Shown: positions 1,872-61,688 of the stretch, in pieces
Layout of the letters: each line of letters opens with the position of its first letter
Position numbering within the stretch: the first letter of the stretch is position 1
Assembly (NCBI GenBank): GCA_028865305.1
Contig: JAGWKM010000002.1
Location: 3,236 to 67,235 of the forward strand
DNA: 64,000 nt
Reading direction: 5' to 3'
DNA from: Patescibacteria group bacterium
GTDB lineage: Bacteria > Patescibacteriota > Minisyncoccia > UBA6257 > 2-01-FULL-56-20
Notes under the pieces: generated by a model
Databases searched by the model: none
The model's input: only the letters and a program-made list of their open reading frames with translations
What the model was told of the DNA's origin: nothing
Made by a program: the position numbers and the translations under genes

Positions 1872-3305
1872 ATGATACCGAAATCTATGGCAAAACAATC
1901 CCGTTCATCGGTCATCGCGTTGGCTATTATTATCGCCGCCGGCCTTGGCCTCCACTTAATCCGCATTTCCTATCCCGCGCGGCCGGTTTTTGATGAAGCT
2001 CACTTTGCGACCTATGCGGCGGACTACGTAAAGGACCATGTTTTCTTTGACATCCATCCGCCGCTCGGAAAGCTGATCTATGCTTCGGCTATTCCGCTTG
2101 CGCTCCGTTTTGAAAACAATGCCCCGCTCGGCGACACCACGTTTGTCGGTTACACGAAAAGCCCGACCGGTACCGTTTATTTCGCGACCGATATTCCCTA
2201 TGGCGCGTTCCCCTATGTTCCGCTCCGGCTCATTTCTGTTTTCTTCGGACTCGCGCTTACGGTTGCTTTTTATTTTTTCCTGCGGAACATCGGCATCGGC
2301 GAAGTCGGCGCGTTGCTCGGCGCATTTTTTGTCACCTTTGAAAACGCAATGCTCCTCGAAACGAAATTGATCCTGCTGAACGGGATGTATCTTGCCTTCG
2401 GCTTCGCGGCATTGGCAATTTGGTTCGAGCATATCCATTTTTCAAAATCATTACCATCTCATTCTCCATCCTCCATTCTCCACGCTCCGATTCTCGCCGG
2501 CTTTCTTTTCGCCCTTTCGCTCGGCGTGAAGCTGGAAGGAATTATTTTCATCGGCCCGGTGTTGATTTCTCTTTTCGAAGGCCGTCTTCGAGGCGAAGAC
2601 GGCCTTCGAGCCCTCAAAAAATTCCTCTTCACCGCACTTCTCGTCTTCGTCGCCATCTCCTTCCTCAATTTCCTTTTCTTCTCACCGGCGCAAATACTCG
2701 CTTTTTCGAAATCCCTCGGCATCAAGTTTCCGGCTCCGACCAATATCCGCGCAACCTATTTCCTCGCCTATGCGATGACGACCGTCGTGCCTTGGACCGG
2801 CTATCTCGTCGGCGGCGCGCAGCTCCAGGGCAGCCTGTGGTATGGCTGGCCCTTCATGCGCGGCGTGATGACATATTATTTTGCCCCCGGGAATGCGGGA
2901 AATCTGGTTTTGCAGGGCAATCCCGTCGTTTGGTACTCAAGCACGCTTGCCGTATTCATTTTTATAGTTACGTTACTCTGGCGCATCGGCCATTGGTTCA
3001 TTGGTCATTCGTTCGATATCAGACATTTGTCATTAGACCTTGCCAAAGCGCCCCTCATTCTCTTCGTAGGTTATTTGAGCGCTTTGGCGCCTTTTTTCAC
3101 CTTCGTGCACCGCGGCGCATTCCTCTACCATTATTTTCCCGCCTACCTCTTCGCCATCGGATTGCTCGCCTATCTGGTTTCACATTGGCTAAAGCTCGAC
3201 GACTTCCACTCGCTCTCAAAAAAACAGGGGCTATATTTGACAGGAATCATTACGTTTGTCGTGGCAGGATTCATTATGACGGCTCCCTTGATTTACGGTT
3301 TATGA
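1872..3305 (+). CDS. PMT-family (GT39-like) phospholipid carrier-dependent glycosyltransferase
   Basis: 477-aa polytopic protein. The N-terminal DEAHFATYA...HPPLGKL motif is typical of dolichyl-phosphate-mannose protein mannosyltransferase-like enzymes. Confidence 0.8.
   Translation: MIPKSMAKQSRSSVIALAIIIAAGLGLHLIRISYPARPVFDEAHFATYAADYVKDHVFFDIHPPLGKLIYASAIPLALRFENNAPLGDTTFVGYTKSPTGTVYFATDIPYGAFPYVPLRLISVFFGLALTVAFYFFLRNIGIGEVGALLGAFFVTFENAMLLETKLILLNGMYLAFGFAALAIWFEHIHFSKSLPSHSPSSILHAPILAGFLFALSLGVKLEGIIFIGPVLISLFEGRLRGEDGLRALKKFLFTALLVFVAISFLNFLFFSPAQILAFSKSLGIKFPAPTNIRATYFLAYAMTTVVPWTGYLVGGAQLQGSLWYGWPFMRGVMTYYFAPGNAGNLVLQGNPVVWYSSTLAVFIFIVTLLWRIGHWFIGHSFDIRHLSLDLAKAPLILFVGYLSALAPFFTFVHRGAFLYHYFPAYLFAIGLLAYLVSHWLKLDDFHSLSKKQGLYLTGIITFVVAGFIMTAPLIYGL
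2454..2495 (-). repeat. heptad (7-bp period) array inside the PMT CDS
   Basis: ccatctc attctcc atcctcc attctcc acgctcc gattctc (complement of TGGAGAA-type units). Encodes PSHSPSSILHAPIL in a loop between hydrophobic segments. Confidence 0.7.
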
Positions 3306-3323
3306 AATCATATTATTTTAGGA

Positions 3324-4382
3324 ATGGGACTCATAGAAAGCTTTGGCTTAAAACGGAAACAGGAAGCGGAGAAGTTTAATCCCTCTACCGAACCGAAAGG
3401 CCCGGCTTTGACCGATATTTTAGGCGATAAGGAAAAATCCCGTTTATTCGGCGCATATCTCGAAGAAGAAGGAGCTGAAGATCTTGCCAGAGAACTGCAC
3501 GAAGGGAAACCGGTTGATTCCGGCTTTATCGCTGAATTAAATAAAAAAAGGACGGAGTTCGTCGAAATCTGCAACCGTGCGGAAACGATTTCCAAAACAC
3601 TGGATCTGAACAGCCTGAATGCAATTATTGAATCTTCTCCGGAATTGAAAGAAATCGCAAATCTCAATAAGGCAGAGGGGATTCGGGATGTCATCCGCCG
3701 CTACCTTCCCGAAATCGCGATACGAGACCGTTCCAGATTCGCCGAAATGGAGCAAAAGATCAACCAACTGGCGGAATCCCAGAAAAAAATCACCGAAAGC
3801 GAAGAAAAAATCAAAAAATTTGTAAAAAAATATGGCATTTCGGAAGAACAGTATTCAAAATTTATTGAAAGCGGCGATGATGAAAAATTAAAAGATTTGA
3901 TTTGGGGCAAGCTGGGCTTTTTTACCAAACTCGGCTGGAATGCGACGAAACGTTTCGACGAAGAACTTTCATCGGCAGTTACCGTTGAAGATATTAATTT
4001 GCTTTTAGCGAATAGAGATACTTCCTTAAAAGAGGTAGGAGGATCGCTTCGAGCAAGTTTGGTCGGCAACGAAACGCTGAACAAAGCTCTAATAGCAAAT
4101 CTGAAGCGGGAAAGCATGGAAAAGCCGGAGGCCGATATGTCTTTCGGCGAATTCGGGAAGGCGCTAAAACCGGAAAAAGAGGCAGTCAAAAAACTGTATG
4201 ATCAATTTAAGCAAGAAAACTTTGCAGATTATCAATCCCAGGGCCTGACCGAGGATGATTTACGTACTGATTTCGTAAAGGGATACGCAAATAAAGTCGC
4301 TACAAAAGGAAAGAAAGGGTTTTGGACAAGCCTTTTCGGCAAATTATTTGCTCCCAAAATTATTGAAGATTTCTTGAAATAA
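3324..4382 (+). CDS. hypothetical K/E-rich coiled-coil protein
   Basis: 352-aa ORF with coding-like composition and no strong antisense competitor. No family recognised. Confidence 0.6.
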   Translation: MGLIESFGLKRKQEAEKFNPSTEPKGPALTDILGDKEKSRLFGAYLEEEGAEDLARELHEGKPVDSGFIAELNKKRTEFVEICNRAETISKTLDLNSLNAIIESSPELKEIANLNKAEGIRDVIRRYLPEIAIRDRSRFAEMEQKINQLAESQKKITESEEKIKKFVKKYGISEEQYSKFIESGDDEKLKDLIWGKLGFFTKLGWNATKRFDEELSSAVTVEDINLLLANRDTSLKEVGGSLRASLVGNETLNKALIANLKRESMEKPEADMSFGEFGKALKPEKEAVKKLYDQFKQENFADYQSQGLTEDDLRTDFVKGYANKVATKGKKGFWTSLFGKLFAPKIIEDFLK

Positions 4383-4383
4383 A

Positions 4384-4677
4384 ATGACAAACATTATTTC
4401 GGACGATCTTTATAAGGATTTCATGGCCATTGTCGACCGAGGAGACGAAAAAGCCGCGCGGGAGTTTTTGGTCTCCCACCTGAAGGAATTCCCGCAGGAA
4501 ACGCAGGACGCGATCATCATGGCATTCGTCGAGGAAGCGCTCGGCAAAAGCGCGGAGGAAACGAAGCTCATCGCGGATTTCCAAAAGCAAGGACTGGCAG
4601 CAATCGACGAGCTCGAAAAATCAAAGCAGGAGTTGGAAGATAAGAAAAAGATGCTGGAGCTGAAGGAAAGCATGTAG
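4384..4677 (+). CDS. hypothetical small acidic protein
   Basis: 97-aa ORF starting 2 nt after the previous stop. Followed by an intrinsic terminator. Confidence 0.55.
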   Translation: MTNIISDDLYKDFMAIVDRGDEKAAREFLVSHLKEFPQETQDAIIMAFVEEALGKSAEETKLIADFQKQGLAAIDELEKSKQELEDKKKMLELKESM

Positions 4678-4682
4678 CAAAC

Positions 4683-4711
4683 AAAAAACTCGGCCTAAGC
4701 CGATTTTTTTG
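4683..4711 (+). terminator. rho-independent terminator
   Basis: A-tract, stem TCGGC/GCCGA with loop CTAA, then T7 run. Confidence 0.7.
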
Positions 4712-4758: not shown

Positions 4759-5652
4759 CTAATCCTTTCGGCGTCTTCCATGAAACGCCTCGTGGACTTC
4801 TTTTAATTCCTTATTAGTGAGATGCGTGTAAATCTGCGTTGTTGAAATATTCGAATGGCCGAGGAGTTCCTGCACGGAGCGGATGTCGGCGCCGTTCACC
4901 AAGAGATCCGTCGCGAAGGAATGGCGCAGTAAATGCGCATGCACGTTTTTCGGGATGCCGGCTTCTTTCGCGCGGCGCGCAACCAACCTTTGCACGGCCC
5001 GCGGCGTAATCTTGCCAATGACTTTGCCCGATTTATCCAGACTCACGAACAATTTTTCTTCAACGTCGGTGCGTTTTTTCAAATAATCTTCGATTGCCTT
5101 TTTTGCCGAATCAGAGAGGAACACGACGCGCAGCTTGTCTCCTTTGCCGCGCACGGAAAGTTCGCCGCGCCGCAGGTCCACGTTGCGCAGCAGGGAACAG
5201 AGTTCCGCCAGGCGCAAGCCGGTCGAAAAGAAGGTTTCGAGGATTGCCCGGTCGCGCAAGTCGCGCATGCCATCCCCTTTCGGCGCCGCGAGCAGGCGCT
5301 CCAAATCGCCGTATTCCAAAACTTCGATCTGCCGCGACGGCGCTTTCGGCAGTTCGATTTTTTCAGCCGCAAGCGATTTGACGTCGCGCTTCGCGAGATA
5401 TTTCAAAAAGTTCCGCAGCGCGATAATGTAATAGCTTTGCGTCAATTTTTTCAGGTCTTTCCGGGCCAGCGCCAGCCGGAATTCGCGGACCACATCGTCC
5501 GTAATATCCGCCGCCGCCTTCACTTTCGAAAATTCCAGGAATTCGCGGAGATAATGCTCGTAATTTTCCCGCGTCTTCGGCGACCGGTTTTTCTCGATTT
5601 CGAGGTAATTCAGGTAGTCGCGAATGAAGTTTTTGATTTCTGTTTCGGCCAT
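4759..5652 (-). CDS. xerC: tyrosine site-specific recombinase, XerC/XerD-like
   Basis: N-terminal SAM-like domain (FIRDYLNYLEIEKNRSPKTRENY). C-terminal catalytic HLLRHSFAT (HxxR) and GHSNISTTQIYTH (Tyr nucleophile). Confidence 0.9.
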   Translation of the reverse strand: MAETEIKNFIRDYLNYLEIEKNRSPKTRENYEHYLREFLEFSKVKAAADITDDVVREFRLALARKDLKKLTQSYYIIALRNFLKYLAKRDVKSLAAEKIELPKAPSRQIEVLEYGDLERLLAAPKGDGMRDLRDRAILETFFSTGLRLAELCSLLRNVDLRRGELSVRGKGDKLRVVFLSDSAKKAIEDYLKKRTDVEEKLFVSLDKSGKVIGKITPRAVQRLVARRAKEAGIPKNVHAHLLRHSFATDLLVNGADIRSVQELLGHSNISTTQIYTHLTNKELKEVHEAFHGRRRKD

Positions 5653-5660
5653 GGGAGGGG

Positions 5661-5775
5661 GAGTAGAATGGAGAATGGAGAATGGAGAATGGAGAATGGA
5701 GAATGGAGAATGGAGAATGGAGAATGGAGAATGGAGAATGGAGAATGGAGAATGGAGAATGGAGAATGGAGATGA
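5661..5775 (+). repeat. perfect tandem heptamer array (AATGGAG)x15 with degenerate flanks
   Basis: Counted from the sequence: 5667-5771 is 105 bp, 15 identical units. Flanked by gagtag and atgaatc partial units. Lies between the divergent xerC-like and rpsO genes. Confidence 0.97.
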
Positions 5776-5825
5776 ATCTTTCTACTTCTTCAGTCTACCA
5801 AAAACCTGTCGCAAAATGCAGCGGC

Positions 5826-5854
5826 TTGCAATAAATCTCAAGCCATGATACAAT
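5826..5854 (+). promoter_or_regulatory. sigma70-like promoter of rpsO (probable leaderless mRNA)
   Basis: TTGCAA-N17-TACAAT with TG two nt upstream of the -10. Only 7 nt separate the -10 from the ATG at 5862. Confidence 0.5.
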
Positions 5855-5861
5855 CAATCCA

Positions 5862-6128
5862 ATGTTAACGAAACGAGTTAAATCGAAAATCGTGGGAGAA
5901 CACCAGAAACACGACAAGGACACCGGCTCCGCCGAGGTCCAGACCGCGATGCTTTCGCGCCAGATCGATGAACTGGCGACCCATCTAAAGAAAAATCCGA
6001 AGGACAACCACTCGCGCCGCGGCCTTTTGAAGATGGTCTCCAAGCGCAGGAAGCTTCTGGCATACCTCCAAAAAAATGATGCGTCGGGCTACAGCAAACT
6101 GATCAAAAAATTAGAATTAAAAAAATAA
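5862..6128 (+). CDS. rpsO: 30S ribosomal protein S15
   Basis: 88 aa. Contains TGSAEVQTAMLSRQIDELATHLKKNPKDNHSRRGLLKMVSKRRKLLAYL, typical of S15. Confidence 0.95.
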   Translation: MLTKRVKSKIVGEHQKHDKDTGSAEVQTAMLSRQIDELATHLKKNPKDNHSRRGLLKMVSKRRKLLAYLQKNDASGYSKLIKKLELKK

Positions 6129-6261: not shown

Positions 6262-6897
6262 ATGAAAACTTCAGCAAGCTACGCAAACCAGAGAGTCGGC
6301 ATTTTTGTCGACGTCCAAAACCTGTACCACTCCGCGAAGAACCTCTATCGCGGCCGGGTGAATTATGCCGAGCTGATCAAAAACCTTATCGGCGACCGGC
6401 AGCTTATCCGCGCGATGGCGTACGTGGTAAAGAGCGAGGGCGTGGAACCGTATGGCGGAAAGGAACAGGGAACGGGGAGCAGGGAACGGGGAACAAAACT
6501 GCGGCGGAATCCGTTCGGCGGCGATGAACCGAATGAACCGGAAGAATCGAGTAGCAGCCTTTCGACCGAAGCGGCGTTCTTTGAGGCACTCGAAAAGGCG
6601 GGTTTGGAACTGCGCATGAAGGATTTGCAGATTTTCGCCGGCGGCATGAAGAAGGCGGACTGGGACGTTGGCATGGCGGTGGATGCGATCCGCATGTCGG
6701 AATTCCTGGATGTCATCATCCTCGTGACCGGCGACGGCGATTTTCTGCCTCTTATTGACTACTTGAAATGGGGCGCGGGGCGGGTCGTCGAGGTTGCCGC
6801 CTTCCGCCGGAGCGCATCGTCGAAAATCCAGGAAGCGGCGGATAAATTCATCGCCATTGAAGATATTCCGAGGGCGATCATGAAAGGAAGGATTTAA
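6262..6897 (+). CDS. NYN/LabA-like (DUF88) putative RNase domain protein
   Basis: VGIFVDVQNLYHSAK... and ILVTGDGDFLPLIDYLK motifs of the LabA/NYN family. Carries an internal low-complexity insert. Confidence 0.8.
   Translation: MKTSASYANQRVGIFVDVQNLYHSAKNLYRGRVNYAELIKNLIGDRQLIRAMAYVVKSEGVEPYGGKEQGTGSRERGTKLRRNPFGGDEPNEPEESSSSLSTEAAFFEALEKAGLELRMKDLQIFAGGMKKADWDVGMAVDAIRMSEFLDVIILVTGDGDFLPLIDYLKWGAGRVVEVAAFRRSASSKIQEAADKFIAIEDIPRAIMKGRI
6462..6496 (+). repeat. heptad array inside the NYN CDS
   Basis: ggaacag ggaacgg ggagcag ggaacgg ggaacaa. Encodes part of GKEQGTGSRERGTK. Confidence 0.75.
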
Positions 6898-6907: not shown

Positions 6908-9049
6908 ATGCTGAACAAAAAATCTTATTCAACAGAAATCGCAGGAAAGACATTGACCATCGAAACTTCTGAGCTCGCCGAACAGGCGAACGCGGCGGTC
7001 ATTGCGAAATACGGCGAGACCGTCGTCCTCGCGACCGCCGTCATGGGGAAAAAAGAAACCGAGCTTGATTACATGCCGCTCAAAGTGGATTACGAAGAAC
7101 GGTTTTACGCCGCCGGAAAGATCATCGGCTCGCGCTTCATCCGCCGCGAAGGCAGGGCTTCGGAAGAAGCCGTCCTCGCCGGGCGCCTGATCGATCGGAC
7201 CATCCGTCCCCTCTTCGACGGCCGCATGCGGCGCGACATCCAGGTCGTCGCCACGGTTTTGCAAATCGACGAACAGAACGATCCGGAATTCGTGAGTTTG
7301 CTTGCCGCTTCAACGGCGCTCATCATTTCCGACATTCCCTGGGGCGGCCCCGTCGCCGGCGTGCGCATCGTGCAGACAGAAGACCGTCTTCTGGACGAAG
7401 ACGGTCTTCATGTCAATCCGGACAATTCCTACGTGGCCGAGCACCAGCCGATTTTCGACGCATTCGTTTCCGGCTCGAAGGACCGCATCAACATGATCGA
7501 GCTCGGCGGCCTGGACGCCCAGGAAAAAGAAGTGGTCGCCGGATTCAAGATGGCGCAACAGGAGATCAATAAGCTGATCGATTTCCAGCAGAATATCCAA
7601 AAGGAGATCGGCAAGCCGAAGGCGGCCGTCGTGCTCGCGGAGCCGGATCCGGAATTGAAATCCGCCGTCGAATCTTTTATTGCGGACAAGCTCGAAGCGG
7701 CCGTTTACCGCCCGAATAAGATGGAACAGCAAAGCGCCATCGGCAAGCTGAAAGAAGAGATGTTTGCCCACCTGAAAGAGATTTTTGATGCGAAAGAAAA
7801 GGCCTTCAGCGGCAAGGCGGCTGACTATTTATTCGAAGAAGCGATCAATGACCTAGTCCATAAGAATGTCCTCGAAAGCGAAAAGCGTCCGGATGGGCGC
7901 AAAACCGATGAACTGCGGCCGTTGAGCGGAGCCGTCGGGCTCTTCTCGCGCACGCACGGTTCGGCGCTCTTCATGCGCGGCAACACGCAGGCGCTTGCCA
8001 TCACGACGCTCGCGCCGCCGGGAGCCGAACAGCTCATTGAAACGATGGAAACGAACGGCAAGCGGCGCTTCCTTCTGCACTACAACTTCCCGCCGTATTC
8101 CGTCGGAGAAATCGGCAATTTCCGCGGTCCGGGCCGCCGCGAGATCGGCCACGGCAACCTGGCGCGCAAATCCCTGGAACGCTTGATCCCGACCAAGGAA
8201 GAATTCCCCTACACCATCCGCGTCGTTTCAGAAATCATGTCCTCGAATGGATCGTCCTCAATGGCAACGGTGTGCGCTTCGGCGCTGTCCATGATGGATG
8301 CCGGCGTGCCGATCAAGAAACCGGCAGCGGGCATCGCGATGGGGCTTATGATGGAACAAGGGACGGGAGACAAGGGACAAGGAAAATTCAAGATACTCAC
8401 GGACATCCAGGGGCCGGAAGACCATCACGGCGACATGGACCTGAAAGTGGCAGGCACGGAGGACGGCGTGACCGGCATGCAGATGGACGTCAAGGTGGAC
8501 GGGCTCACGATCGAAATTTTGGAAAAAGCGTTCGAGCAGGCGAAAAAGGCGCGGCTCGAAATCCTGAAAGTGGTGAAGGCGACGCTGCCGACGCACCGCG
8601 AAAAATTGTCGCCGTTCGTGCCGACCATCCGCCAGCTGAAGATCGGTGTCGAAAAGATCGGCGCACTCATCGGCCCGGGCGGCAAGGTAATCAACGGACT
8701 CATTGAGAAATACAACCTGGCAGGCATTGATGTCGACGAAGACGGCGGCGTGTTCGTTTCCGGTTCCGACCTCGAAAAGGTGGAAATGGCGGTGACGGAA
8801 ATCAAATTGATCACGCGCGAATTCAAGGTGGGCGAGATTATCGAAGGCAAGATCATCAAAACGCTGGACTTCGGCGCGATTGTCGACCTCGGCGGCGGCA
8901 AGGATGGCATGATCCATGTTTCGGAATTGAAGCAGGGATTCGTGAAAACGGTGAATGAAGTGGTAAAAGTGGGCGACTTCGTCCGCGCGAAAATCATACG
9001 AGTGGACGAGGACGGAAAGATCGGCCTGTCGCTGAAGCAAATGCAATAA
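6908..9049 (+). CDS. pnp: polyribonucleotide nucleotidyltransferase (PNPase)
   Basis: 713 aa. Two RNase PH-like halves (FLLHYNFPPYSVGE, GDMDLKVAGT), then KH (IGALIGPGGKVI) and S1 (VGEIIEGKI...DGMIHVSEL) domains. Confidence 0.97.
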   Translation: MLNKKSYSTEIAGKTLTIETSELAEQANAAVIAKYGETVVLATAVMGKKETELDYMPLKVDYEERFYAAGKIIGSRFIRREGRASEEAVLAGRLIDRTIRPLFDGRMRRDIQVVATVLQIDEQNDPEFVSLLAASTALIISDIPWGGPVAGVRIVQTEDRLLDEDGLHVNPDNSYVAEHQPIFDAFVSGSKDRINMIELGGLDAQEKEVVAGFKMAQQEINKLIDFQQNIQKEIGKPKAAVVLAEPDPELKSAVESFIADKLEAAVYRPNKMEQQSAIGKLKEEMFAHLKEIFDAKEKAFSGKAADYLFEEAINDLVHKNVLESEKRPDGRKTDELRPLSGAVGLFSRTHGSALFMRGNTQALAITTLAPPGAEQLIETMETNGKRRFLLHYNFPPYSVGEIGNFRGPGRREIGHGNLARKSLERLIPTKEEFPYTIRVVSEIMSSNGSSSMATVCASALSMMDAGVPIKKPAAGIAMGLMMEQGTGDKGQGKFKILTDIQGPEDHHGDMDLKVAGTEDGVTGMQMDVKVDGLTIEILEKAFEQAKKARLEILKVVKATLPTHREKLSPFVPTIRQLKIGVEKIGALIGPGGKVINGLIEKYNLAGIDVDEDGGVFVSGSDLEKVEMAVTEIKLITREFKVGEIIEGKIIKTLDFGAIVDLGGGKDGMIHVSELKQGFVKTVNEVVKVGDFVRAKIIRVDEDGKIGLSLKQMQ
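8353..8387 (+). repeat. heptad array inside pnp
   Basis: ggaacaa gggacgg gagacaa gggacaa ggaaaat. Encodes EQGTGDKGQGK between the conserved GIAMGL and ILTDI blocks. Confidence 0.75.
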
Positions 9050-10013: not shown

Positions 10014-10409
10014 TCAAAAGCCGGCTTTCTTTTCGAGTTTTTTCACTCGGACTTCCAAATCTATCACGTCCGCCTGGCAATCGACTTCCTTTATATTTTC
10101 GCGGATTTCCTTTAATTCACCTAAAATTTCTATGAACCGATTGTCTGTTGACCTTTCCAGCTTGTCGAATCGTTCACTTAAAATATCAGCCCTTTCTGTC
10201 AAGGCAAGTAAATCCTCCTGTTTTGCCATTTTCCCTTCCATTTCTGAAAAACCATTCTGCGCCATCCGCGCCAGGGACTCTATATCTTCTTTTGTTGAAA
10301 CCTTTTCCGCAAGCGCGTCTACGGTTCCCGTCAAGGTATCTACGGTTCCCACAAGCGTATCCAAACTGCCCGCCAGTGATTCTAATGTAACCTCTTTTTT
10401 ATCGTTCAT
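10014..10409 (-). CDS. hypothetical coiled-coil protein, paralogue of 23414..23623
   Basis: ORF track lists 10014..10451. The start at 10409 (MNDKK...) is preferred because the homologous upstream region of the paralogue places the ATG at the same GGAATTATG. Shared LARM..NGF and RV..LEKK.G segments. Confidence 0.6.
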   Translation of the reverse strand: MNDKKEVTLESLAGSLDTLVGTVDTLTGTVDALAEKVSTKEDIESLARMAQNGFSEMEGKMAKQEDLLALTERADILSERFDKLERSTDNRFIEILGELKEIRENIKEVDCQADVIDLEVRVKKLEKKAGF

Positions 10410-10524: not shown

Positions 10525-10833
10525 ATGCTAAAATGGCTACATATGGCTGATTCCGGTAACCAAAACCAAACCGAGAATTTCCCTTCCGCGCCGCCGCCGC
10601 CGCAGGAAGTGAAGATCCGCACCATGAAATCAGATCTTGCTTCGCTGGCACAGACCGGCGGCGGCTTGCCGCAGTTCCAAAGCGTGCGGATTGATTTGCC
10701 ACGGGAGAGAAGTGAGAAGTTAGATGCGAGAGGCGAGAAGAAAATCAACGCCGGCATAGCGGTCGTCATCGTGGCAATCGTCGTCGTCCTCGCTGTGGCC
10801 GCCTATTTCGCCTTGGTTTATTTGAAAAAGTGA
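10525..10833 (+). CDS. hypothetical C-terminally membrane-anchored protein
   Basis: 102-aa ORF. Likely real start MADSGNQ at 10543. IRTMKSDL motif and a C-terminal TM helix (IAVVIVAIVVVLAVAAYFALV). Confidence 0.6.
   Translation: MLKWLHMADSGNQNQTENFPSAPPPPQEVKIRTMKSDLASLAQTGGGLPQFQSVRIDLPRERSEKLDARGEKKINAGIAVVIVAIVVVLAVAAYFALVYLKK
10707..10741 (+). repeat. heptad array inside CDS
   Basis: gagaagt gagaagt tagatgc gagaggc gagaaga. Encodes ERSEKLDARGEK. Confidence 0.7.
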
Positions 10834-19713: not shown

Positions 19714-19786
19714 GCCGATGTAGCTCAGCTGGTAGAGCAGGGCTTTCGTAAAGCCAAGGTCGCCGGTTCAAATCCGGCCATCGGCT
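19714..19786 (+). tRNA. tRNA-Thr (anticodon CGT)
   Basis: Acceptor GCCGATG/CATCGGC, D arm GCTC-AGCTGGTA-GAGC, anticodon loop TTCGTAA, T arm GCCGG-TTCAAAT-CCGGC. CCA not encoded. Confidence 0.9.
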
Positions 19787-44526: not shown

Positions 44527-45765
44527 ATGTTGAATATAAAAGAATTAACCAAGGCCGTAAAGCAGGTTGCGGAGGAAAAAGGGCTCGAGCCGGAGAAAAT
44601 AATGGAGGTCATTGAGTCGTCTATCGCGGCTGCCTACAAACGCGAATACGGCGAACGCGGCGAGGTGGTAAAATGCAAACTCGATGAAAAGACGGGCTCT
44701 TTGCAGTTTTGGCAAGTGAAAACGGTGGTGGATGAGACGACCGTTCGATTCGTAGAAGAAGGGGAGGAAGAAGCCGAAGCGGCAAAGAAGCCGGAAGCTG
44801 GAAGCTGGAAGCTGGAAGCTGCCGAAGAGGCCGACAAACTGCCGCGCTATAACGAGGAGCGACACATCCTGCTTGAAGATGCCGAGAAAATAAAATCCGA
44901 TGCCAAGGTTGGTGACGAATTGGCCTTTCCGCTTGAAACCCATGAGGATTTCGGCCGCATTGCCGCACAGACGGCAAAGCAGGTCATCTTACAGAAGCTG
45001 CGCGAATCGGAGCGCGATTCCATCTTGAGGGAATGGCACGGCAAGGAGGGCCAGATCGTGAGCGGGGCAGTGCAGCGGTTCGAACGCGGCAATATTTATG
45101 TTGACCTCGGCCGCACGATCGGCGTGATGTTCGCAAATGAATCCATTCCGAGCGAACACTACCGCGCCGGCGAACGGTTGCGCTTTTTGGTGTATGCCGT
45201 GCAGGAGGATACGCGCATGCCCGGCATCATACTCTCGCGCGCAAATCCCAGATTCGTAACCGAGCTTTTCAACACGGAGGTGCCGGAGCTTGCGGAAGGC
45301 GCCGTTGAGATCAAATCGATCGCGCGCGAACCGGGCAACCGCACGAAGGTTGCCGTGGCTTCGACCGTGGACGGCGTCGATCCGGTGGGCGCGCTCGTCG
45401 GCCAGCGCGGCACGCGCGTCAATGCGGTCACGAACGAACTCGGCAACGAAAAGATCGACATCGCCGAATGGTCCGAAGACCCCGAAATGTTTATCGCGAA
45501 TTCGCTCTCGCCGGCAAAAGTGGAACGCGTGGAAATTTTACCGCGCCGCGAAGCCCGGGCATTCGTGCCCGAGAGTCAATTGAGCTTAGCCATCGGCAAG
45601 GGCGGCCAGAACGTGCGCCTCGCGGCCAAGCTCACCGGCTGGAAAATAGACGTCCGCTCGCAATCAAACCCCGATGAAGCCGTCGAAGGCGCCTCCGCCG
45701 GGGAAGACGCGGAATCCGGCCAAATCCCACCACAGGATGATGAACGGGAAGATATCATCGCATAA
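44527..45765 (+). CDS. nusA: transcription termination/antitermination factor NusA
   Basis: N-terminal domain (AVKQVAEEKGLEPEKIMEVIESSIAAAYKREYG), S1 (GQIVSGAVQRFERGNIYVDLG), and two KH domains (GALVGQRGTRV, AIGKGGQNVRLA). Confidence 0.95.
   Translation: MLNIKELTKAVKQVAEEKGLEPEKIMEVIESSIAAAYKREYGERGEVVKCKLDEKTGSLQFWQVKTVVDETTVRFVEEGEEEAEAAKKPEAGSWKLEAAEEADKLPRYNEERHILLEDAEKIKSDAKVGDELAFPLETHEDFGRIAAQTAKQVILQKLRESERDSILREWHGKEGQIVSGAVQRFERGNIYVDLGRTIGVMFANESIPSEHYRAGERLRFLVYAVQEDTRMPGIILSRANPRFVTELFNTEVPELAEGAVEIKSIAREPGNRTKVAVASTVDGVDPVGALVGQRGTRVNAVTNELGNEKIDIAEWSEDPEMFIANSLSPAKVERVEILPRREARAFVPESQLSLAIGKGGQNVRLAAKLTGWKIDVRSQSNPDEAVEGASAGEDAESGQIPPQDDEREDIIA
44793..44820 (+). repeat. perfect (GGAAGCT)x4 inside nusA
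   Basis: Counted four identical units. Encodes EAGSWKLEA within an acidic insert between the NTD and S1. Confidence 0.9.
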
Positions 45766-45873
45766 CACAGCAAAATCCCTCCTCTGAGGGATTTTGCTTT
45801 ATTTTCCTTGCTTTTTCATGAATTCAGCAGTATTCTTTGAACATCATAAGGTCATATAAAATTAAAAAACACC

Positions 45874-47862
45874 ATGTCTCCCATATCCTTTGCAATCGCG
45901 AGCGGCATCATCTCGGTCCTCTTTGCTCTTTACTTCATTTATAAAATTTCGCGGTATCCGGCGGGCGACGAGAAAATGAACGAGATCGCGCACGCCATCC
46001 AGATCGGCGCGAAGGCGTTCCTCAACCGGCAATATAAGACCGTAGCGGCAGTCGCGGTCGTGGTTGCCATCATCATCGGGATTTTCCTGAATATCGCCAC
46101 GATGATCGGCTTCCTGGTCGGCGCATTCGCTTCGGCTCTCGCCGGCTACATCGGCATGAATATGTCGGTGCGCGCGAACGTGAAAACGGCGGAGGCGGCG
46201 AAATCCGGATTGAAAAAAGCGCTCGCGGTGGCGTTTGAAGGCGGTTCGGTTACCGGATTGCTCGTCGTCGGTTTGGCGCTTTTGTCGGTTTCGATTTTTT
46301 ACGCAATCACGAATGACGTGACCGCGCTCATCGGCCTCGGTTTCGGCGGCAGCTTGATCTCGATCTTCGCCCGGCTCGGCGGCGGCATTTTCACGAAAGG
46401 CGCGGATGTCGGCGCGGATCTCGTCGGCAAGGTGGAAGCGGGCATTCCGGAGGATGATCCGCGGAATCCGGCGGTTATCGCGGACAACGTTGGCGACAAT
46501 GTGGGCGACTGCGCCGGCATGGCGGCGGACCTTTTTGAAACCTATGCCGTAACCGCAGTCGCGGCCATGCTGCTCGGCTCATTAAGCTCGTCCAATCCCG
46601 CCATCATTGCTTTGCCGCTCATGATCGGCGGCGTGGCGGCCATCGCCTCCGCCATCGGCGTTTTCTTCGTACGGCTCGGCAAGAGCCAATCCATCATGGG
46701 TGCGCTTTATAAAGGATTGGTTGCCGCAAGCGTCTTGGCGCTGCTCGGTTTTGCCTGGCTTGCAAATGGCGCAGCCGCGGCAGGCCTCTTCGCTTTCGGC
46801 TCGCTCTTTTTCCCGATGCTCGTCGGCATTCTCGTTACCGCTTTCATTGTTTTGATCACCGAATATTACACCTCGAAAAAATTCCGCCCGGTGCGTTCCA
46901 TAGCGCAATCCTCTGAAACCGGCCACGGCACGAACATCATCACCGGCCTCTCGGTCGGCATGGAATCCACCGCGCTGCCGATCATAGCCATCGTCGCCGG
47001 CATCCTGGTTGCCTACTGGCTCTCCGGCCTCTACGGCATCGCGCTCGCCGTCATGAGCATGCTTGGCATGACGGGCATCATCGTTGCCATCGACGCTTTC
47101 GGCCCGATTACCGATAATGCGGGTGGCATTGCCGAAATGGCCGGACTGCCGGATCACGTCCGCGAAGTGACCGATGCCCTTGATGCGGTCGGCAACACGA
47201 CAAAAGCGGTGACAAAGGGCTATGCCATCGGCTCGGCCGGCCTGGCGGCAGTCGTACTTTTCTCTTCTTATGTCCAGGCGCTTTCGGCAAAAGCCGGCGG
47301 CTTGGCAATGGTATTCGATTTGAGCGATCCCCGCATCATCACCGGCCTTCTGCTCGGCGGCATGATCCCCTATCTTTTCGCTTCAATCTCAATGAAGGCG
47401 GTTGGCAAGGCCGCAGGGAGCGTGGTTATCGAAGTGCGGCGGCAATTCAAGGAAATGCCGGGCATCATGCAGGGAACCCAAAAACCGGATTACGCGCGTA
47501 GTATTGATATCGTGACTCGGGCAGCGATCAAAGAGATGGTCGTCCCGGCACTTCTGCCGGTCGTCCTGCCGATCGCGGTTGCCCTCCTGCTCGGCCCCTT
47601 GGCGCTCGGCGGCCTGCTCGTCGGTTCCATCGTCACCGGTATTTTCGTGGCAGTTTCAATGACTTCCGGCGGCGCGGCCTGGGATAATGCGAAGAAATAC
47701 ATCGAGGAAGGCAATCTTGGCGGCAAAGGCTCGGAAGCCCACAAAGCAGCTGTTACCGGGGATACGGTGGGCGATCCCTACAAAGATACTGCCGGCCCTG
47801 CGATCAACCCGGTCATCAAGATCATCAACATCATTGCGTTATTGCTGATACCTTTCTTATAA
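45874..47862 (+). CDS. hppA: membrane-bound H+/Na+-translocating pyrophosphatase
   Basis: 662 aa. [39 protein letters not shown] and [14 protein letters not shown] motifs. Confidence 0.96.
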
Positions 47863-47942
47863 TTTAATTCAGGAGTATGGAGAAAGAAGAATGGAGAATG
47901 GGTTGCCCTTTCTCCATTCTCCCTACTCCATTCTCCATCTCT
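47863..47942. repeat. inverted heptad arrays (GGAGAAT-type) between hppA and clpP
   Basis: ggagaaa gaagaat ggagaat gggttgc | cctttct ccattct ccctact ccattct ccatctc. AGAATGGAGAA pairs with TTCTCCATTCT. Confidence 0.8.
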
Positions 47943-48630: not shown

Positions 48631-49821
48631 ATGGAATCAAAACAGGAGCAAATCGATCGGCTGCTTTCGCGGAATGTTGAAAGTGTCATCGAAAAAGAAC
48701 ACCTGCGGAAAGCGCTTGAAAGCGGCAAAAAGCTGCGCGTGAAACTTGGCATCGACCCGACCTCGCCGGATCTGCATTTGGGCCACGCTGTTGTGCTGCA
48801 GAAATTGAAGGAGTTTCAGGATCTCGGCCATCAGATTGTTTTGATCATCGGTGATTTTACTGCGCGCATCGGTGATCCGACCGGCCGCTCGCAGGCCAGG
48901 AAACCGCTCTCGGAACGGGAAATCAAGGCCAACGAAAAAGAATATCTTAAACAAGCGGGCCTCATAATCAACATCAAGAAAGCTGAAATTTATCACAACA
49001 GCGGTTGGTTTTTGAAAGAAGGCGTAAACGGGCTTTTTGCCCTGACGGCCGCAGGCACCATGCAGCAGATGCTCCATCGCGGCGATTTCAAGGAACGGCT
49101 GGCCGCGGGCGGCGACGTGACCGTCACCGAGCTCCTGTATCCGCTTCTGCAGGGATATGATTCGGTAAAAGTCAGGGCGGATGCAGAGCTGGGAGGCAAC
49201 GACCAGCTTTTGAACCTGCTTGCGGGACGGAGGGTCCAGCGGCATTTTGGCATGGAGGAGCAAGATGTGCTCACGACGCCCTTGCTCGAAGGACTGGACG
49301 GCAAGAAGAAAATGAGCAAAAGCTATGGCAATTATATAGGGCTTACGGATGCGCCGGAGGATATGTTCGGCAAGACCATGTCCATTCCGGATCAGCTCGT
49401 TGAAAAATATTTCCTGTTCTGCACCGAACTGCCGGATGCCGAAATCAAATTGTCCCAAAAAGAAATGGGGCCGAAAGAATTTAAAGAACAGCTCGGTTTT
49501 GAACTGGTCAAGCTGTACCACGGTGAAAAAGCGGCGCACGCGGCCCGGGAACGTTTTGAAATGCTTTTTTCAAAAAAGGAGATTCCGGATGATATTCCGG
49601 AACTCAGGATTCCAGGGGGGAAACTCTCCGCCCTTGATCTCGTGGCGGCCTCCGGAGCGGCCAAAAGCAAAAGCGATGCCCGGCGCCTCATCGAACAAGG
49701 CGGCGTAGAATTAGCGGGAAAAACATTGAAAAATCCATTAGAGGTGCTTTCAATCAAGGGCGGCGAAGTTGTTAAAGTAGGGAAAAAGCGTTTTTTTAAA
49801 ATGGCGATAAGTAAAAAGTAA
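48631..49821 (+). CDS. tyrS: tyrosine--tRNA ligase
   Basis: HLGH (LHLGHAV) and KMSKS motifs, plus a C-terminal S4-like domain. Confidence 0.93.
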   Translation: MESKQEQIDRLLSRNVESVIEKEHLRKALESGKKLRVKLGIDPTSPDLHLGHAVVLQKLKEFQDLGHQIVLIIGDFTARIGDPTGRSQARKPLSEREIKANEKEYLKQAGLIINIKKAEIYHNSGWFLKEGVNGLFALTAAGTMQQMLHRGDFKERLAAGGDVTVTELLYPLLQGYDSVKVRADAELGGNDQLLNLLAGRRVQRHFGMEEQDVLTTPLLEGLDGKKKMSKSYGNYIGLTDAPEDMFGKTMSIPDQLVEKYFLFCTELPDAEIKLSQKEMGPKEFKEQLGFELVKLYHGEKAAHAARERFEMLFSKKEIPDDIPELRIPGGKLSALDLVAASGAAKSKSDARRLIEQGGVELAGKTLKNPLEVLSIKGGEVVKVGKKRFFKMAISKK

Positions 49822-49825
49822 CGGG

Positions 49826-49910
49826 AAAAAAGACAAGGAACAGGAAGTAAGAGACAAAGAACAAGAGATATTTGCCTGTGGATAACTTGAGTTGACGGGT
49901 TTTGTTGTCT
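49826..49910. repeat. heptad-phased purine array with inverted partner downstream of tyrS
   Basis: aaggaac aggaagt aagagac aaagaac aagagat ... gttttgt tgtcttg. AAGACAA pairs with TTGTCTT. Confidence 0.6.
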
Positions 49911-50155: not shown

Positions 50156-51457
50156 ATGCATAAAACAATTTCTTGGGTTTCCGGCCTTGCTCTGGTGGCG
50201 TCGATTGCGATCGCGCCGTCGCTTTCCTTTGCCCAAACCGTGAACTCGAGCAGTAGTTCAAACCTCCAGGCAGAGCTTCAGCTCATTGCTACTCTGACCG
50301 CCCAGGTGCAGCAGTTGCAACAGCAGTTGCAACAGATCCAGCAGCAGCGGCAGTCGGCGATCATGCAGCTCATAAGCACGTTACGCCAAGGTTCGACGGG
50401 CAGCCAAGTTACGCTTTTGCAGACCCTGCTTTCGGCCAGCTCCACGATCTATCCTGAAGGGCTTGTTACCGGCTTTTTCGGCCCGGCTACCGAAAGGGCG
50501 GTACAAAGGTTCCAAAGAGAGAATGGCTTGCCGCAGGTCGGCATCGTCGGTCCGCAAACACTCGCGAAACTGAACGAGTGGCTTAACGAAAATCCGATTG
50601 GCCTCGAAAATACGACTTCGACCGCGAATGTCTCGACCACTTTCATGGGCTTTGGCCACGGCGAAGGCAATGGGAATGGTTCGGGTGATGATAACCAAGG
50701 CGGGAACCAGAATGGCGGCGAAGGCAACCGCCTCTGCGCAATAGTTCCGCCGGGGCACTTCATTGCTCCGGGATGGTTGCGACACCACGATAACGAAATG
50801 CCGATCCTGCCTCCCTGCCAGATCCTGCCTCCGGGCATAACGGGGCAATTCCCAAGTTCTACGCCAAGCTCAACGCCGAGTTCTACGCCATTTACCCTTT
50901 CCGGCGTTTCGGCAGCCGCGGCAACGAGTACGGCTTCGGTCACGTGGAACACGAACATGCCCGCCAATTCGCAAGTGATGTATGGATTGACATCGGCATA
51001 CGGTTCAAGCACGGCGCTTGATTCGAACATGGTTACGACCCATACGGAAGCCGTTACAGGCCTCCTGCCGGGGACGATATACCATTTTGAGGTTGCGTCC
51101 GCAAATGCGTCTGGCACCATGGCGACGTCCTCCGACATGACATTTACGACCGGCGCGGTGGCTATATTGCCCGTAATCTCCGGCGTCAATTTCTCGGCGG
51201 CCAGCACGACGGCGCAGATCTCATGGAATACCAATACGTCAACTGACGGAAAAGTATTCTATGCCACGAGCTCGCCGGTTTCACTCACGTCCACGAGTAC
51301 GCTTTCCGTGAGTACGACGACCATGGCTACGAGCCATATGCTCGGCTTAACCAATCTGGCGACCGGCACGACCTACTATTTCGTCGTCCAATCGACTGAC
51401 GGTTCGAGCAATACGACGACATCAACTCAACAGTCGTTCAGCACGACAGCGCAATAA
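50156..51457 (+). CDS. secreted protein with peptidoglycan-binding (PG_binding_1) domain and Ig/FN3-like repeats
   Basis: Signal peptide, Q-rich coiled segment, GSQVTLLQTLL...GFFGPATERAVQRFQRENGL, and repeated T/S-rich beta modules. Confidence 0.8.
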   Translation: MHKTISWVSGLALVASIAIAPSLSFAQTVNSSSSSNLQAELQLIATLTAQVQQLQQQLQQIQQQRQSAIMQLISTLRQGSTGSQVTLLQTLLSASSTIYPEGLVTGFFGPATERAVQRFQRENGLPQVGIVGPQTLAKLNEWLNENPIGLENTTSTANVSTTFMGFGHGEGNGNGSGDDNQGGNQNGGEGNRLCAIVPPGHFIAPGWLRHHDNEMPILPPCQILPPGITGQFPSSTPSSTPSSTPFTLSGVSAAAATSTASVTWNTNMPANSQVMYGLTSAYGSSTALDSNMVTTHTEAVTGLLPGTIYHFEVASANASGTMATSSDMTFTTGAVAILPVISGVNFSAASTTAQISWNTNTSTDGKVFYATSSPVSLTSTSTLSVSTTTMATSHMLGLTNLATGTTYYFVVQSTDGSSNTTTSTQQSFSTTAQ

Positions 51458-53679: not shown

Positions 53680-53987
53680 GGGGACGCATTGGCTTTGATA
53701 ACGATGGGCTGCGGGTTTGCGGGCCGAAGGCGCGGGCGTTACAGCGCATCCATTATAACTGGCAACTCTCGAGTTCCAGCTCCGAGCTTCGCTTTCGCCT
53801 AGCTTGGGATCGGCCAATCCGGGCTTCTTGGGTTGACGCCGGTCTTATACAAGGAAGCTAAGCTCTCCGCGACGATTCTGACGGAGAGACGAAAACTAAG
53901 AATCATTTTGCCTAACTCGTTTAGACTACGCCCGTAGAAGATCCGCGAGTCCCATCGTTACACGAGGTTTCGATACCTCCGTCTCCA
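53680..53987 (+). ncRNA. ssrA: tmRNA (SsrA)
   Basis: 5' GGGGACG pairs with 3' CGTCTCC-A, giving the G3-U70 alanine identity pair. T arm GAGG-TTTCGATA-CCTC. The internal tag frame 53761-53802 (GGC AAC TCT ... GCT TTC GCC TAG) encodes GNSRVPAPSFAFA*. CCA not encoded. Confidence 0.82.
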
Positions 53988-54151
53988 CTCGACGCGCCCT
54001 CCTTATGGAGGGCTTGCTCGTGGTAAACCACCTACCCGCTCGCAGAACAATCAATGAAATAACTCGCGCGTCGAGTGCCCTGAGCGAGTCTTCGAGTCGA
54101 AGGGCATATTTTTTAACGTTTATTTAATCTTTGTTTTATATAATCCCAATC

Positions 54152-57288: not shown

Positions 57289-57301
57289 TTATTCGGAGCA
57301 T

Positions 57302-57357
57302 AGAGAATGGAAGTTGGAGAATTGAGTAATTCCCGCTTCCAGCTTCAACTCTCCAAT
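57302..57357. repeat. inverted heptad arrays between rpmI and rplT
   Basis: agagaat ggaagtt ggagaat tgagtaa | ttcccgc ttccagc ttcaact ctccaat. GTTGGAGAATTGA pairs with TCAACTCTCCAAT (11 of 13). Confidence 0.75.
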
Positions 57358-60913: not shown

Positions 60914-60948
60914 TTACCGGCGCCGGATGTCACGGACATCCGGCGCCA

Positions 60949-60988
60949 CCCCAGCTTGCGGCGTGTCCGCGGCTGGGGCTTTTTTTTA
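60949..60988 (+). terminator. rho-independent terminator (preceded by a 13-bp GC hairpin at 60919-60947)
   Basis: CCCCAGC...GCTGGGG followed by CTTTTTTTT. Confidence 0.75.
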
Positions 60989-61096
60989 TCCAGGGAAGCA
61001 GTATGATTGAGGAGAAAAATGCCCAATGGCTAACACCCAATGAACATCCGAGGGGTGGAAATTTCCGATATATTAAGCCATTTCTTCTATTTGTTG

Positions 61097-61124
61097 GGCA
61101 TTAGGTATTAGATATTAGATATTC
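61097..61124 (+). repeat. heptad array immediately upstream of the yebC-like gene
   Basis: ggcatta ggtatta gatatta gatattc, ending 6 nt before the ATG at 61131. Confidence 0.75.
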
Positions 61125-61130
61125 TCTCCC

Positions 61131-61688
61131 ATGTCCGGCCATTCCCATTGGGCAGGAATCAAACATAAGAAGGAGATCACCGACCAGAAGCGCGGAAAGG
61201 TCTTTTCTAAGCTCCTAGCGGCTATTTCAGTTGCCGCAAAAACGGAGCCGAACCCGGATTTTAACCCGCGGCTGCGGACCGCTGTTTTAAAAGCCAAAGA
61301 GATGAGTGTGCCGCAGGATAATATTGACCGCGCCATTAAAAAGGCTTCCGAGAGCGGCGCTAATCTTGAAGAGTTGCTTTTTGAGGCCTATGGCCCGGGC
61401 AGCACGGCAATCCTGATTGAGGCCGTAAGCGACAACCGGAACCGAACCGTGCAGGAAATAAAGACCATTTTGCGCGATTGCGGAGGCAAATGGGCGGAGA
61501 ACGGAAGCGTGCAGTGGGCATTTGAGCGCGCCGCAGGCAATCAGCAGCCGGCAATCGGCGACCAGGAGGGGTGGGTTGCGAAATTCCCACAGGAAATTTC
61601 AGGGGAGGACGGGGAAAAACTGGCAAAACTTATTGACGCGCTCGAAGAAAATGAGGGTGTCCAGAATGTGTATACAAACGCGGCATAA
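61131..61688 (+). CDS. yebC: YebC/PmpR-family regulator (short form, 185 aa)
   Basis: MSGHSHWAGIKHKKEITDQKRGKVFSKL...NPRLRTAVLKAKEMSVPQDNIDRAIKK. Confidence 0.88.
   Translation: MSGHSHWAGIKHKKEITDQKRGKVFSKLLAAISVAAKTEPNPDFNPRLRTAVLKAKEMSVPQDNIDRAIKKASESGANLEELLFEAYGPGSTAILIEAVSDNRNRTVQEIKTILRDCGGKWAENGSVQWAFERAAGNQQPAIGDQEGWVAKFPQEISGEDGEKLAKLIDALEENEGVQNVYTNAA
61536..61570 (+). repeat. heptad array inside the yebC-like CDS
   Basis: ggcaatc agcagcc ggcaatc ggcgacc aggaggg. Encodes GNQQPAIGDQEG. Confidence 0.65.

Follow-up and report, generated by a model that had tools for sequence, protein, structure and literature searches.

Heptanucleotide tandem arrays in genes and intergenic spacers of a Patescibacteria genome segment

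What gives rise to the many runs of 7-nt units that occupy both spacers and conserved genes in the genome of a Patescibacteria group bacterium, and do they represent a new kind of element? We studied these heptanucleotide arrays in 64,000 nt of contig JAGWKM010000002.1 (assembly GCA_028865305.1, positions 3,236 to 67,235), in the following called the window, to which all coordinates refer unless a related locus is named. An initial annotation of the window had reported about 20 such loci together with a set of claims on their placement and origin. The observation itself is confirmed and statistically strong, i.e., the window contains discrete arrays with a period of seven in numbers far above those of shuffled sequence.

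To quantify this, we used Tandem Repeats Finder (TRF) and a lag scan, which scores each position for a match to the base p positions further on. Period 7 accounts for 18 of the 52 TRF rows obtained for the window. With strict scoring (match +1, mismatch -3, score at least 12), the lag scan reports six arrays at period 7 and none at periods 4, 5, 6, 8, 9, 10, 11 and 13, and dinucleotide shuffles of the window yield about zero period-7 arrays. A softer scoring (mismatch -2, score at least 10) results in 12 period-7 arrays compared to 0.1 expected from the shuffles, seven at period 14 and 0-3 at any other period, while a 50-kb Escherichia coli control spanning pnp-nusA shows no period-7 array for the same scoring. 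The lag-7 autocorrelation, which the initial annotation had proposed as a check, is almost flat over the whole window (0.2588 vs. about 0.254). That is, the period-7 signal resides in discrete arrays rather than being diffuse, such that array counts are the informative statistic.

In total, we tallied 19 arrays at 15 loci. The non-coding 13% of the window (outside of open reading frames (ORFs) and RNA genes) holds 11 of the 19, i.e., arrays favour intergenic DNA per base. Copy-to-copy identity within arrays ranges from 100% down to about 70% (TRF), and therefore the arrays are of a range of ages. Furthermore, TRF reports 14-nt sub-periods at 2460, 6462 and 38208, which indicates growth in two-unit steps. 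The individual arrays are the following.

2454 to 2495, minus strand: about six degenerate GGAGAAT-type units inside the PMT-family glycosyltransferase gene, encoding SLPSHSPSSILHAP; TRF periods 7 and 14.
5665 to 5772, plus strand: perfect (AGAATGG)x15.4 in the divergent spacer between a xerC-like gene and rpsO (5862 to 6128, plus strand); TRF score 216, 100% matches.
6462 to 6496, plus strand: GGAACAG/GGAACGG, 4.9 copies that show a 14-nt substructure, located in frame within the gene of the NYN-domain protein; TRF, lag-7 identity 0.75.
8353 to 8387, plus strand: degenerate GGAACAA/GGGACAA, about four copies, in frame in the PNPase gene, in the loop from GLMM to KILTDIQGPEDHHGD; TRF score 33, weaker lag-7 identity of 0.64.
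10707 to 10741, plus strand: GAGAAGT-type units, 4.9 copies, in a small hypothetical ORF (10525 to 10833; hydrophobic C-terminal segment, no Pfam match); TRF, lag-7 identity 0.75.
18208 to 18237, minus strand: (CAAAAAG)x4.3 on the coding strand, in the linker of FtsK; TRF 91% matches, scan score 15-17.
23796 to 23819, plus strand: perfect (GCTAATC)x3.4, ending 5 nt before the start codon (23825) of ftsE, an ABC-type ATPase gene followed by FtsX; TRF 100%.
26409 to 26429, plus strand: (CGGCAAA)x3, encoding the last residues of an OmpR-type response regulator; TRF 92%.
34734 to 34749, plus strand: AT-rich AATTAAT array in the dus-spoU spacer; TRF and lag scan, weak as it is a short, low-complexity tract.
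35663 to 35692, plus strand: AATCTCT/AATTAAT array in the spacer between spoU and a methyltransferase gene, with an inverted partner within 90 nt; TRF and lag scan.
38181 to 38237, plus strand: inverted pair AGAATGC AGAAGGC AGAAAGG, loop, CATTCCA CCTTCTT CATTCTA in the glycerate kinase-ppsA spacer.
39876 to 39905, plus strand: perfect (GGAGAAA)x4.3, in frame in PpsA, encoding EKGERRKEKG; TRF 100%.
44787 to 44821, plus strand: (GGAAGCT)x5, in frame in NusA, encoding PEAGSWKLEA; TRF 96%.
47872 to 47938, plus strand: inverted pair GGAGTAT GGAGAAA GAAGAAT GGAGAAT, loop, CCTTTCT CCATTCT CCCTACT CCATTCT in the H+-pyrophosphatase-clpP spacer.
57295 to 57357, plus strand: inverted pair GGAGCAT AGAGAAT GGAAGTT GGAGAAT, loop and complementary arm in the rpmI-rplT spacer, followed by TTTTT.
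61100 to 61123, plus strand: (ATTAGAT)x3.4, with its end 7 nt upstream of the start codon of yebC (61131); TRF 94%.

With the exception of the FtsK array, which is absent from the initial annotation, all of these loci had been named there and hold, the PNPase array being the weaker case. As had been stated, arrays are found intergenically as well as in frame in the genes for PNPase, NusA, PpsA, the NYN protein, FtsK, the PMT-family glycosyltransferase and the response regulator. All host ORFs stay open through their arrays, and Pfam domains flank the arrays on either side.

The dominance of period 7 also holds for relatives of the host. Among 160 related Parcubacteria loci (2.3 Mb), we find 52 arrays at period 7, compared to 16 and 19 at its multiples 14 and 21, respectively, and no more than eight at any other period. 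The average density of 48 arrays per Mb compares to 188 per Mb in the window, i.e., the latter is about fourfold. The distribution is patchy, with no array in 65 of the 116 loci of at least 10 kb, while others have 5-7. Units are nearly all distinct within and between relatives, as expected from local seeds. This patchiness among close relatives makes the clade suited to finding a genetic determinant of the bias, e.g., a repair or polymerase gene. The densest case seen is the Parcubacteria metagenome contig L096 (1-5536), where seven period-7 arrays with all different units are found in 5.5 kb; the glycerate kinase gene contains three of these and ppsA another one.

The initial annotation had suggested testing whether arrays within genes are lineage-specific insertions. 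Comparison with orthologues indicates that they are, and that these in-frame insertions are placed in loops or linkers that vary between lineages. The PpsA array is exactly a 7-aa insertion (21 nt, three units) with respect to both its two nearest relatives (L161 and L162, 84% identity) and L081-L085. In the AlphaFold model, it is located in a coil between short helices with a predicted local distance difference test (pLDDT) score of about 62. The NusA array is part of a 33-aa acidic segment (aa 70-102) that is variable among eight orthologues and unaligned to the best-matching solved NusA (6j9e_F; one alignment compared). Likewise, the NYN array is found in a loop variable in both length and sequence (25 orthologues) and the FtsK array in a hypervariable linker (12 orthologues), while the PMT array corresponds to 15 aa that are missing from the L162 orthologue (60% identity).

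The same sites are hit repeatedly. For PNPase, the loop harbouring the window's array shows insertions of 6-12 aa in many lineages, and one 70-nt stretch of it contains six of the 12 arrays found in 81 PNPase genes, including all five strong ones. The units observed there, in at least six lineages, are GGAACAA, CCAGCAA, CAGCCAA, AAACCCG, AAATTCG and GTTTGAT. Similarly, L161 (12055-12081) and L162 (10118-10148) have a PpsA site in common, after TGKK/TAKK, at which both show a heptamer insertion of 27 nt, built from GGGACAT/C and AAGCGAC units, respectively; this site is empty in the window. One way to read the insertion is a homologous seed of 6 nt to which 21 nt were added. This recurrence, both in the PNPase loop and at the PpsA site, fits two readings, i.e., repeated expansion of local seeds at a tolerant site or an old array with unit turnover, while insertion of a fixed foreign block does not fit.

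With regard to array length, we pooled all loci with the window, which gives 37 period-7 arrays within genes and 26 in intergenic DNA. Within genes, periods 6, 9 and 12 account for only 6, 2 and 1 arrays, respectively. In-gene tracts cluster at 26-34 nt, and their most frequent length of 31 nt corresponds to a seed unit with three units added, whereas intergenic tracts are shorter, many of them 19-24 nt (Fisher p=0.01, Mann-Whitney p=0.004). The clustering around 31 nt fits the survival of only 21-nt multiples in genes. The strict form of this rule, as put forward in the initial annotation, stands for the freshest array, which fits it exactly, but not for gaps of 6 aa (PNPase), 15 aa (PMT) and 9 aa (relatives' PpsA), which are no multiples of seven residues.

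Three inverted pairs fill short spacers of co-directional genes, i.e., glyK-ppsA, hppA-clpP and rpmI-rplT, and fold into hairpins, two of which are very stable. The RNA of 38181-38237 folds with -22.5 kcal/mol (z -5.5, none of 200 shuffles as good) and takes up the 62 nt that separate the stop codon of the glycerate kinase gene (38182) from the start of ppsA (38245). For 47872-47938, located downstream of the stop codon of the H+-pyrophosphatase gene (47862) and upstream of the probable start of clpP (47943), we obtain -36 kcal/mol (z -4.5). The hairpin at 57295-57357, flanked by the L35 and L20 ORFs, is weaker with -21.9 kcal/mol (z -3.1). Two further hairpins from inverted arrays had been claimed and do not stand: the region 49826-49910 is a purine-rich low-complexity stretch without hairpin (fold z -0.97) whose lag-7 identity of 0.48 is about that at lag 6 (0.49), and 25625-25705 shows a moderate fold (z -3.15) without being heptameric (lag-7 identity 0.42).

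The hairpins had also been described as terminator-like. For the two strongest (38181-38237 and 47872-47938) this is unsupported since neither is followed by the T-run of a Rho-independent terminator, although canonical hairpins with T-run exist elsewhere in the window (45769-45798, 42557-42579). Only 57295-57357 has a run of five T. Rfam reports nothing at the hairpins and, within the window, only tRNAs and a transfer-messenger RNA (tmRNA).

In relatives, the respective spacers are short or differently occupied. The glyK-ppsA spacer comprises 10-30 nt in L081-L085, and in L161 (9440-9994) and L162 (7601-8056) a NUDIX hydrolase gene, absent in the window, is found between the glycerate kinase gene and ppsA. 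The hppA-clpP spacer of L029 has about 32 nt, which also argues for 47943 as the true clpP start. Given these orthologous spacers, the hairpins are lineage-specific gains. Inverted pairs as such recur across the clade: for 24 of the 123 arrays, a partner in inverted orientation is found no more than 90 nt away. For instance, (AGGGTAT)x4.7 faces (ATACCCT)x4 at 7914-7990 of L019, the closest PNPase relative. The G3N4 spacing of this unit is able to form a G-quadruplex, and a second palindromic repeat (ATACGAA... / ...TTCGCAT) is found nearby at about 8300-8420.

The longest array of the window is located in the xerC-rpsO spacer, which comprises 209 nt. Of eight related genomes, seven have 72-145 nt at this place and L010 has 371 nt. 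The 108 nt of the array explain the extra length over those seven. Its perfect copies call for some care, since the array length may be set by the assembler's k-mer and the true copy number may be higher. A TGTCGCAAAAT motif is conserved in the relatives' xerC-rpsO spacers about 25 nt from xerC; within the window's spacer (5652-5862) it is about 150 nt away because the array intervenes. As far as can be judged from this arrangement, xerC expression may be altered by the displaced motif.

A peculiarity of the window is the recurrence of one unit type. GGAGAAT-type units recur at seven loci, including 2454-2495 (minus strand), 5665-5772, 38181-38237, 39876-39905, 47872-47938 and 57295-57357; among these are the three hairpins, the 15-copy array and two genes. 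A search with a 21-mer of the unit matches five places of the window with at most three mismatches compared to zero expected. Among these are 47872-47938, with matches on both strands, and 2454-2495, which matches with 1-3 mismatches and lies in a segment spanned by the Pfam PMT domains. The claim that hairpins and gene insertions share one repeat class thus stands in so far as GGAGAAT-like units are common to the hairpins, PpsA and PMT, but not in its description of the hairpins as terminators. The clustering of units is only moderately significant, with 10 unit pairs within one mismatch vs. 4-5 expected (P=0.06 and P=0.0075 for two null models).

We considered an abundant seed as the source of this recurrence and rejected it, since the single word GGAGAAT has 6-13 occurrences outside arrays given a mean of 8 and is thus not over-represented. 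A specially favoured unit is rejected as well. A GGAGAAT dimer is present in only one of the 160 related loci. (GGAGAAT)x4 is found in six IMG/VR contigs and its scrambled version (GGATAGA)x4 in seven; (GATGAGA)x4 and (GGAAGCT)x4 are found in none. Perfect (GGAGAAT)n arrays are present in the IMG/VR contigs L163-L168 (40-66% GC), with five arrays of up to 16 copies in L166 and an inverted pair in L165. Those checked (L165, L166, L168) encode capsid, portal, tape-measure or baseplate genes according to phage Pfam domains. Heptamer arrays thus seem general in phage genomes too, given that the scrambled control unit is equally frequent in this viral collection.

Taken together, we consider it probable that the arrays are heptanucleotide long simple sequence repeats (SSRs), produced by slippage-type growth in 7-nt steps and filtered by selection. 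A local 7-nt seed would be duplicated by strand misalignment during replication or repair. The 7-nt register appears to be favoured in many prokaryotes, possibly reflecting the stretch of DNA held by the polymerase, as proposed by earlier authors. Arrays would then gain or lose whole units, sometimes two at once, become homogenised and, with time, erode through point mutations. Non-coding DNA could tolerate every copy number (up to 15 here), while genes would retain nothing but net changes of three units (21 nt, 7 aa) at insertion-tolerant loops or linkers, which would explain why the same loops are struck in separate lineages. For the inverted pairs in short spacers, the most likely origin is an array copied onto the other strand by template switching. 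They give rise to stable hairpins within polycistronic transcripts, which are not standard terminators but may be retained for their RNA structure.

Several points weigh against this reading. The main one left unexplained by simple local slippage is the recurrence of GGAGAAT-type units within one genome, which growth from independent local seeds does not predict. In addition, a single-copy essential gene such as nusA can only pass from one unit to four via frameshifted intermediates or by the gain of several units in one event, the coordinated growth of both hairpin arms is beyond simple slippage, and the preference for period 7 is without mechanistic account. Finally, hypermutability, the hallmark of SSRs, would have to be seen among sibling strains, and the databases hold none: the window's PpsA is a singleton whose nearest match is 84% identical, a metagenome scan gives at most 79%, and the window's integrase is unmatched. 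There is a small chance that Parcubacteria instead possess a process of their own which appends several heptamer units at once, e.g., by reiterative synthesis or by hairpin/template-switch elongation. If true, it could explain jumps from one to four units without frameshift, the joint growth of hairpin arms and the spread of a unit to several loci, and it would make heptamer arrays a main source of loop insertions in housekeeping proteins of the Candidate Phyla Radiation (CPR).

The recurring unit could also suggest a dispersed mobile family, i.e., GGAGAAT-type palindromes akin to repetitive extragenic palindromic (REP) elements or miniature inverted-repeat transposable elements (MITEs), copied between spacers by an enzyme such as a transposase of the REP-associated tyrosine transposase (RAYT) type, with tandem arrays as by-products. 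One unit type at seven loci of 64 kb in both orientations, three imperfect palindromes in spacers that are shorter or differently occupied in relatives, and the clade-wide inverted pairs agree with this. Still, we think it unlikely: the three hairpins share the unit type only, not stems, loops or flanks, each relative's hairpins use their own unit (e.g., AGGGTAT in L019), for which a local origin fits better, and the family would have to include plain in-frame arrays within genes. Furthermore, no transposase is seen beside any copy, and Pfam results for 30 scanned window ORFs include no Y1 transposase. Quite unlikely, too, are selected cis-regulatory sites, be it for a heptamer-binding protein/RNA module (OB-fold or cold-shock-type) or as hairpins that control translation or mRNA stability. 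Five arrays (23796, 38217, 47910, 57336, 61100) end 5-12 nt before a start codon, a position similar to that used in the argument of MacGregor 2015 (PMC4679880), the hairpins are very stable, and the genes lack Shine-Dalgarno sequences, so that start regions may be regulated unusually. On the other hand, units differ widely between loci and genomes such that there is no common binding word, orthologous spacers of relatives are without arrays, and half of the loci are inside genes and simply translated. Phase-variation (contingency) switching via copy number is very improbable. A 7-nt period does frameshift genes, and the 15-copy array in the divergent xerC/rpsO promoter spacer, with its shifted TGTCGCAAAAT motif, would suit a switch; yet the hosts are housekeeping genes (nusA, pnp, ftsK, ppsA) rather than surface or restriction genes, and their arrays are mid-gene, in loops and all in frame. 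The chance of an assembly or sequencing artefact is practically negligible. Beyond the perfect 108-nt array, whose length could reflect the k-mer size, conserved genes stay in frame, arrays show graded decay and they recur across dozens of assemblies that different projects produced independently, with whole-chromosome records among them.

The window belongs to a Parcubacteria/Paceibacteria (Patescibacteria, CPR) genome. The best relatives of the window's PNPase and PpsA (74-86% identity) are exclusively Patescibacteria/CPR metagenome-assembled genomes (MAGs) with labels such as Paceibacterota, Minisyncoccia, Liptonbacteria and similar. The hosts and neighbours of the arrays are the following, all but PNPase identified by Pfam.

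1872 to 3305, plus strand: PMT-family glycosyltransferase.
4759 to 5652, minus strand: XerC-like recombinase.
6262 to 6897: NYN-domain protein.
6908 to 9049: PNPase, identified by 46-84% identity to retrieved Patescibacteria MAG matches and the conserved TDIQGPEDHHGDMD motif.
16640 to 18805, minus strand: FtsK.
25711 to 26436: OmpR-type response regulator.
36890 to 38182: glycerate kinase.
38245 to 40725: PpsA.
44527 to 45765: NusA.
45874 to 47862: H+-pyrophosphatase.
47943, probable start: ClpP.
48631 to 49821: TyrRS.
61131 to 61688: YebC.

The arrays have consequences for annotation, i.e., they yield a false N-terminal extension and a false ORF. The longest clpP ORF begins inside an array at 47877, and the 74-aa ORF at 5624-5848 is only the translation of the 15-copy array. 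Within yebC, the array named in the initial annotation at 61536-61570 does not hold, since its signal is weak (lag-7 identity 0.50 vs. 0.44 at lags 3 and 10). A frameshift of yebC at 61536 was considered and rejected, as the gene is intact with a normal C-terminus and is followed by ruvC. YebC has 185 aa compared to about 240 aa for typical bacterial YebC; its ends are intact while the middle domain appears shortened.

With regard to translation starts, Shine-Dalgarno sequences are missing upstream of almost all window genes, e.g., at 5862 (rpsO), 48631 (tyrS) and 61131 (yebC), and we thus rejected GGAG as Shine-Dalgarno sequence in this genome. In several genes, a TATAAT-like box ends about 7 nt before the ATG. 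For rpsO, we observe CTTGCA, 17 nt, TACAAT, 7 nt and ATG, and the box layout of both rpsO and xerC is kept in the xerC-rpsO spacers of relatives (L003-L021). The lack of Shine-Dalgarno sequences together with a conserved box near the ATG suggests that leaderless mRNAs are widespread in the clade. Beside its tmRNA gene (53680-53990), the window contains four tRNA genes (Leu, Thr, Ser, His) at 1774-1856, 19714-19787, 28274-28363 and 43592-43663, of which tRNA-Ser was found by ARAGORN below the Rfam gathering score. TRF repeats with periods of 21, 12 and 18 are also present at 10310-10361, 50303-50347 and 50799-50890; the 50156-51457 gene, which encodes a peptidoglycan-binding/fn3 protein, contains (CAGCAGTTGCAA)x2.2 and (CCAAGTTCTACG)x3.2.

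Are the arrays a new kind of element? The initial annotation knew of nothing equivalent, which is wrong in general. As far as the survey of Mrazek, Guo & Shah 2007 is represented in two later papers (PMC4679880, PMC4692102), heptanucleotides are the most abundant class of long SSRs in most prokaryote genomes, are scattered phylogenetically and are hypothesised to arise by polymerase slippage, with the unit length tentatively linked to how much DNA the polymerase holds. The window's arrays agree with what is reported of that class, i.e., tandem units of 5-11 nt that are longer than expected by chance, with period 7 dominant, a patchy occurrence among lineages and an enrichment in non-coding DNA. 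The host phylum (Patescibacteria/CPR) is not part of that survey. The density in the window is high with 188 arrays per Mb, and in the pooled loci heptamers outnumber 6-, 9- and 12-nt repeats also within genes.

More specific systems resemble the arrays in part. For Xanthomonas and Nostoc, GGGAATC arrays that are specific to a genome have been described by Rehm et al. 2015, with inverted pairs and with both length and sequence varying between close relatives in one and the same spacer (PMC4692102). These GGGAATC/GGGGAYT repeats are likewise mostly intergenic and some of their pairs are able to make stem-loops, but they have G3-4 tracts and form G-quadruplexes while GGAGAAT and GGAGAAA have only GG. 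Such heptamers would show at least four G3 tracts at 7-nt spacing; the arrays at 5665 and 39876 are without GGG, and the degenerate ones at 6462-6496 and 8353-8387 contain four and three GGG tracts, respectively. The units AGGGTAT (L019) and GGGACAT (L161) are closer to the G3 pattern than those of the window. For marine Beggiatoaceae, cyanobacteria and some Bacteroidetes, MacGregor 2015 reports TAACTGA arrays of 2-6 copies directly upstream of start codons (PMC4679880); binding by an OB-fold or cold-shock-type protein has been proposed for TAACTGA. This position is shared by some arrays of the window, as is the presence of one unit at many loci without a known means of spread. However, the unit is different and TAACTGA is almost entirely intergenic, whereas units are diverse here and half of the loci are in genes. 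Tandem GGGAATC, GGGGATT, TAACTGA and the Haemophilus unit ATCTTTC are absent from the window.

The short tandemly repeated repetitive (STRR) sequences are heptamers of heterocystous cyanobacteria with unknown function. Like the arrays studied here, they comprise several heptamer families per genome that are tandemly amplified and mostly intergenic. Unlike STRRs, many window arrays are in frame in housekeeping genes, and the phylum is a different one: the best PNPase and PpsA relatives are all Patescibacteria/Paceibacterota, not heterocystous cyanobacteria. A tandem dimer of the STRR1-3 units (CCCCAGT, TTGGTCA, CAACAGT) is not present in the window. The three hairpins, on the other hand, resemble REP elements and bacterial interspersed mosaic elements (BIMEs), i.e., they are intergenic imperfect palindromes of 55-65 nt (z -3.1 to -5.5) in co-directional spacers, two of them without T-run, and could stabilise the upstream mRNA. 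In contrast to REP/BIME, their stems are tandem 7-nt units; the copies share the unit type but no longer element sequence, and no RAYT gene is seen among the 30 window ORFs scanned.

Full-text searches on heptamer, SSR or 7-bp repeats in CPR, Patescibacteria or Parcubacteria found no report. The arrays are thus a kind of repeat known since 2007 and, with STRR, even before, in a new phylum and with new units, not a new kind of element. What the window adds is a first clear CPR example, with an unusually high density and with good cases of 21 nt inserted in frame into repeatedly used loops of essential proteins. That is, the unexplained 7-nt preference of prokaryotic repeats now reaches the CPR, i.e., genomes of less than 1 Mb with little room for neutral DNA, and the identical PNPase and PpsA loops with different units per lineage provide a concrete case of repeats that reshape conserved proteins.

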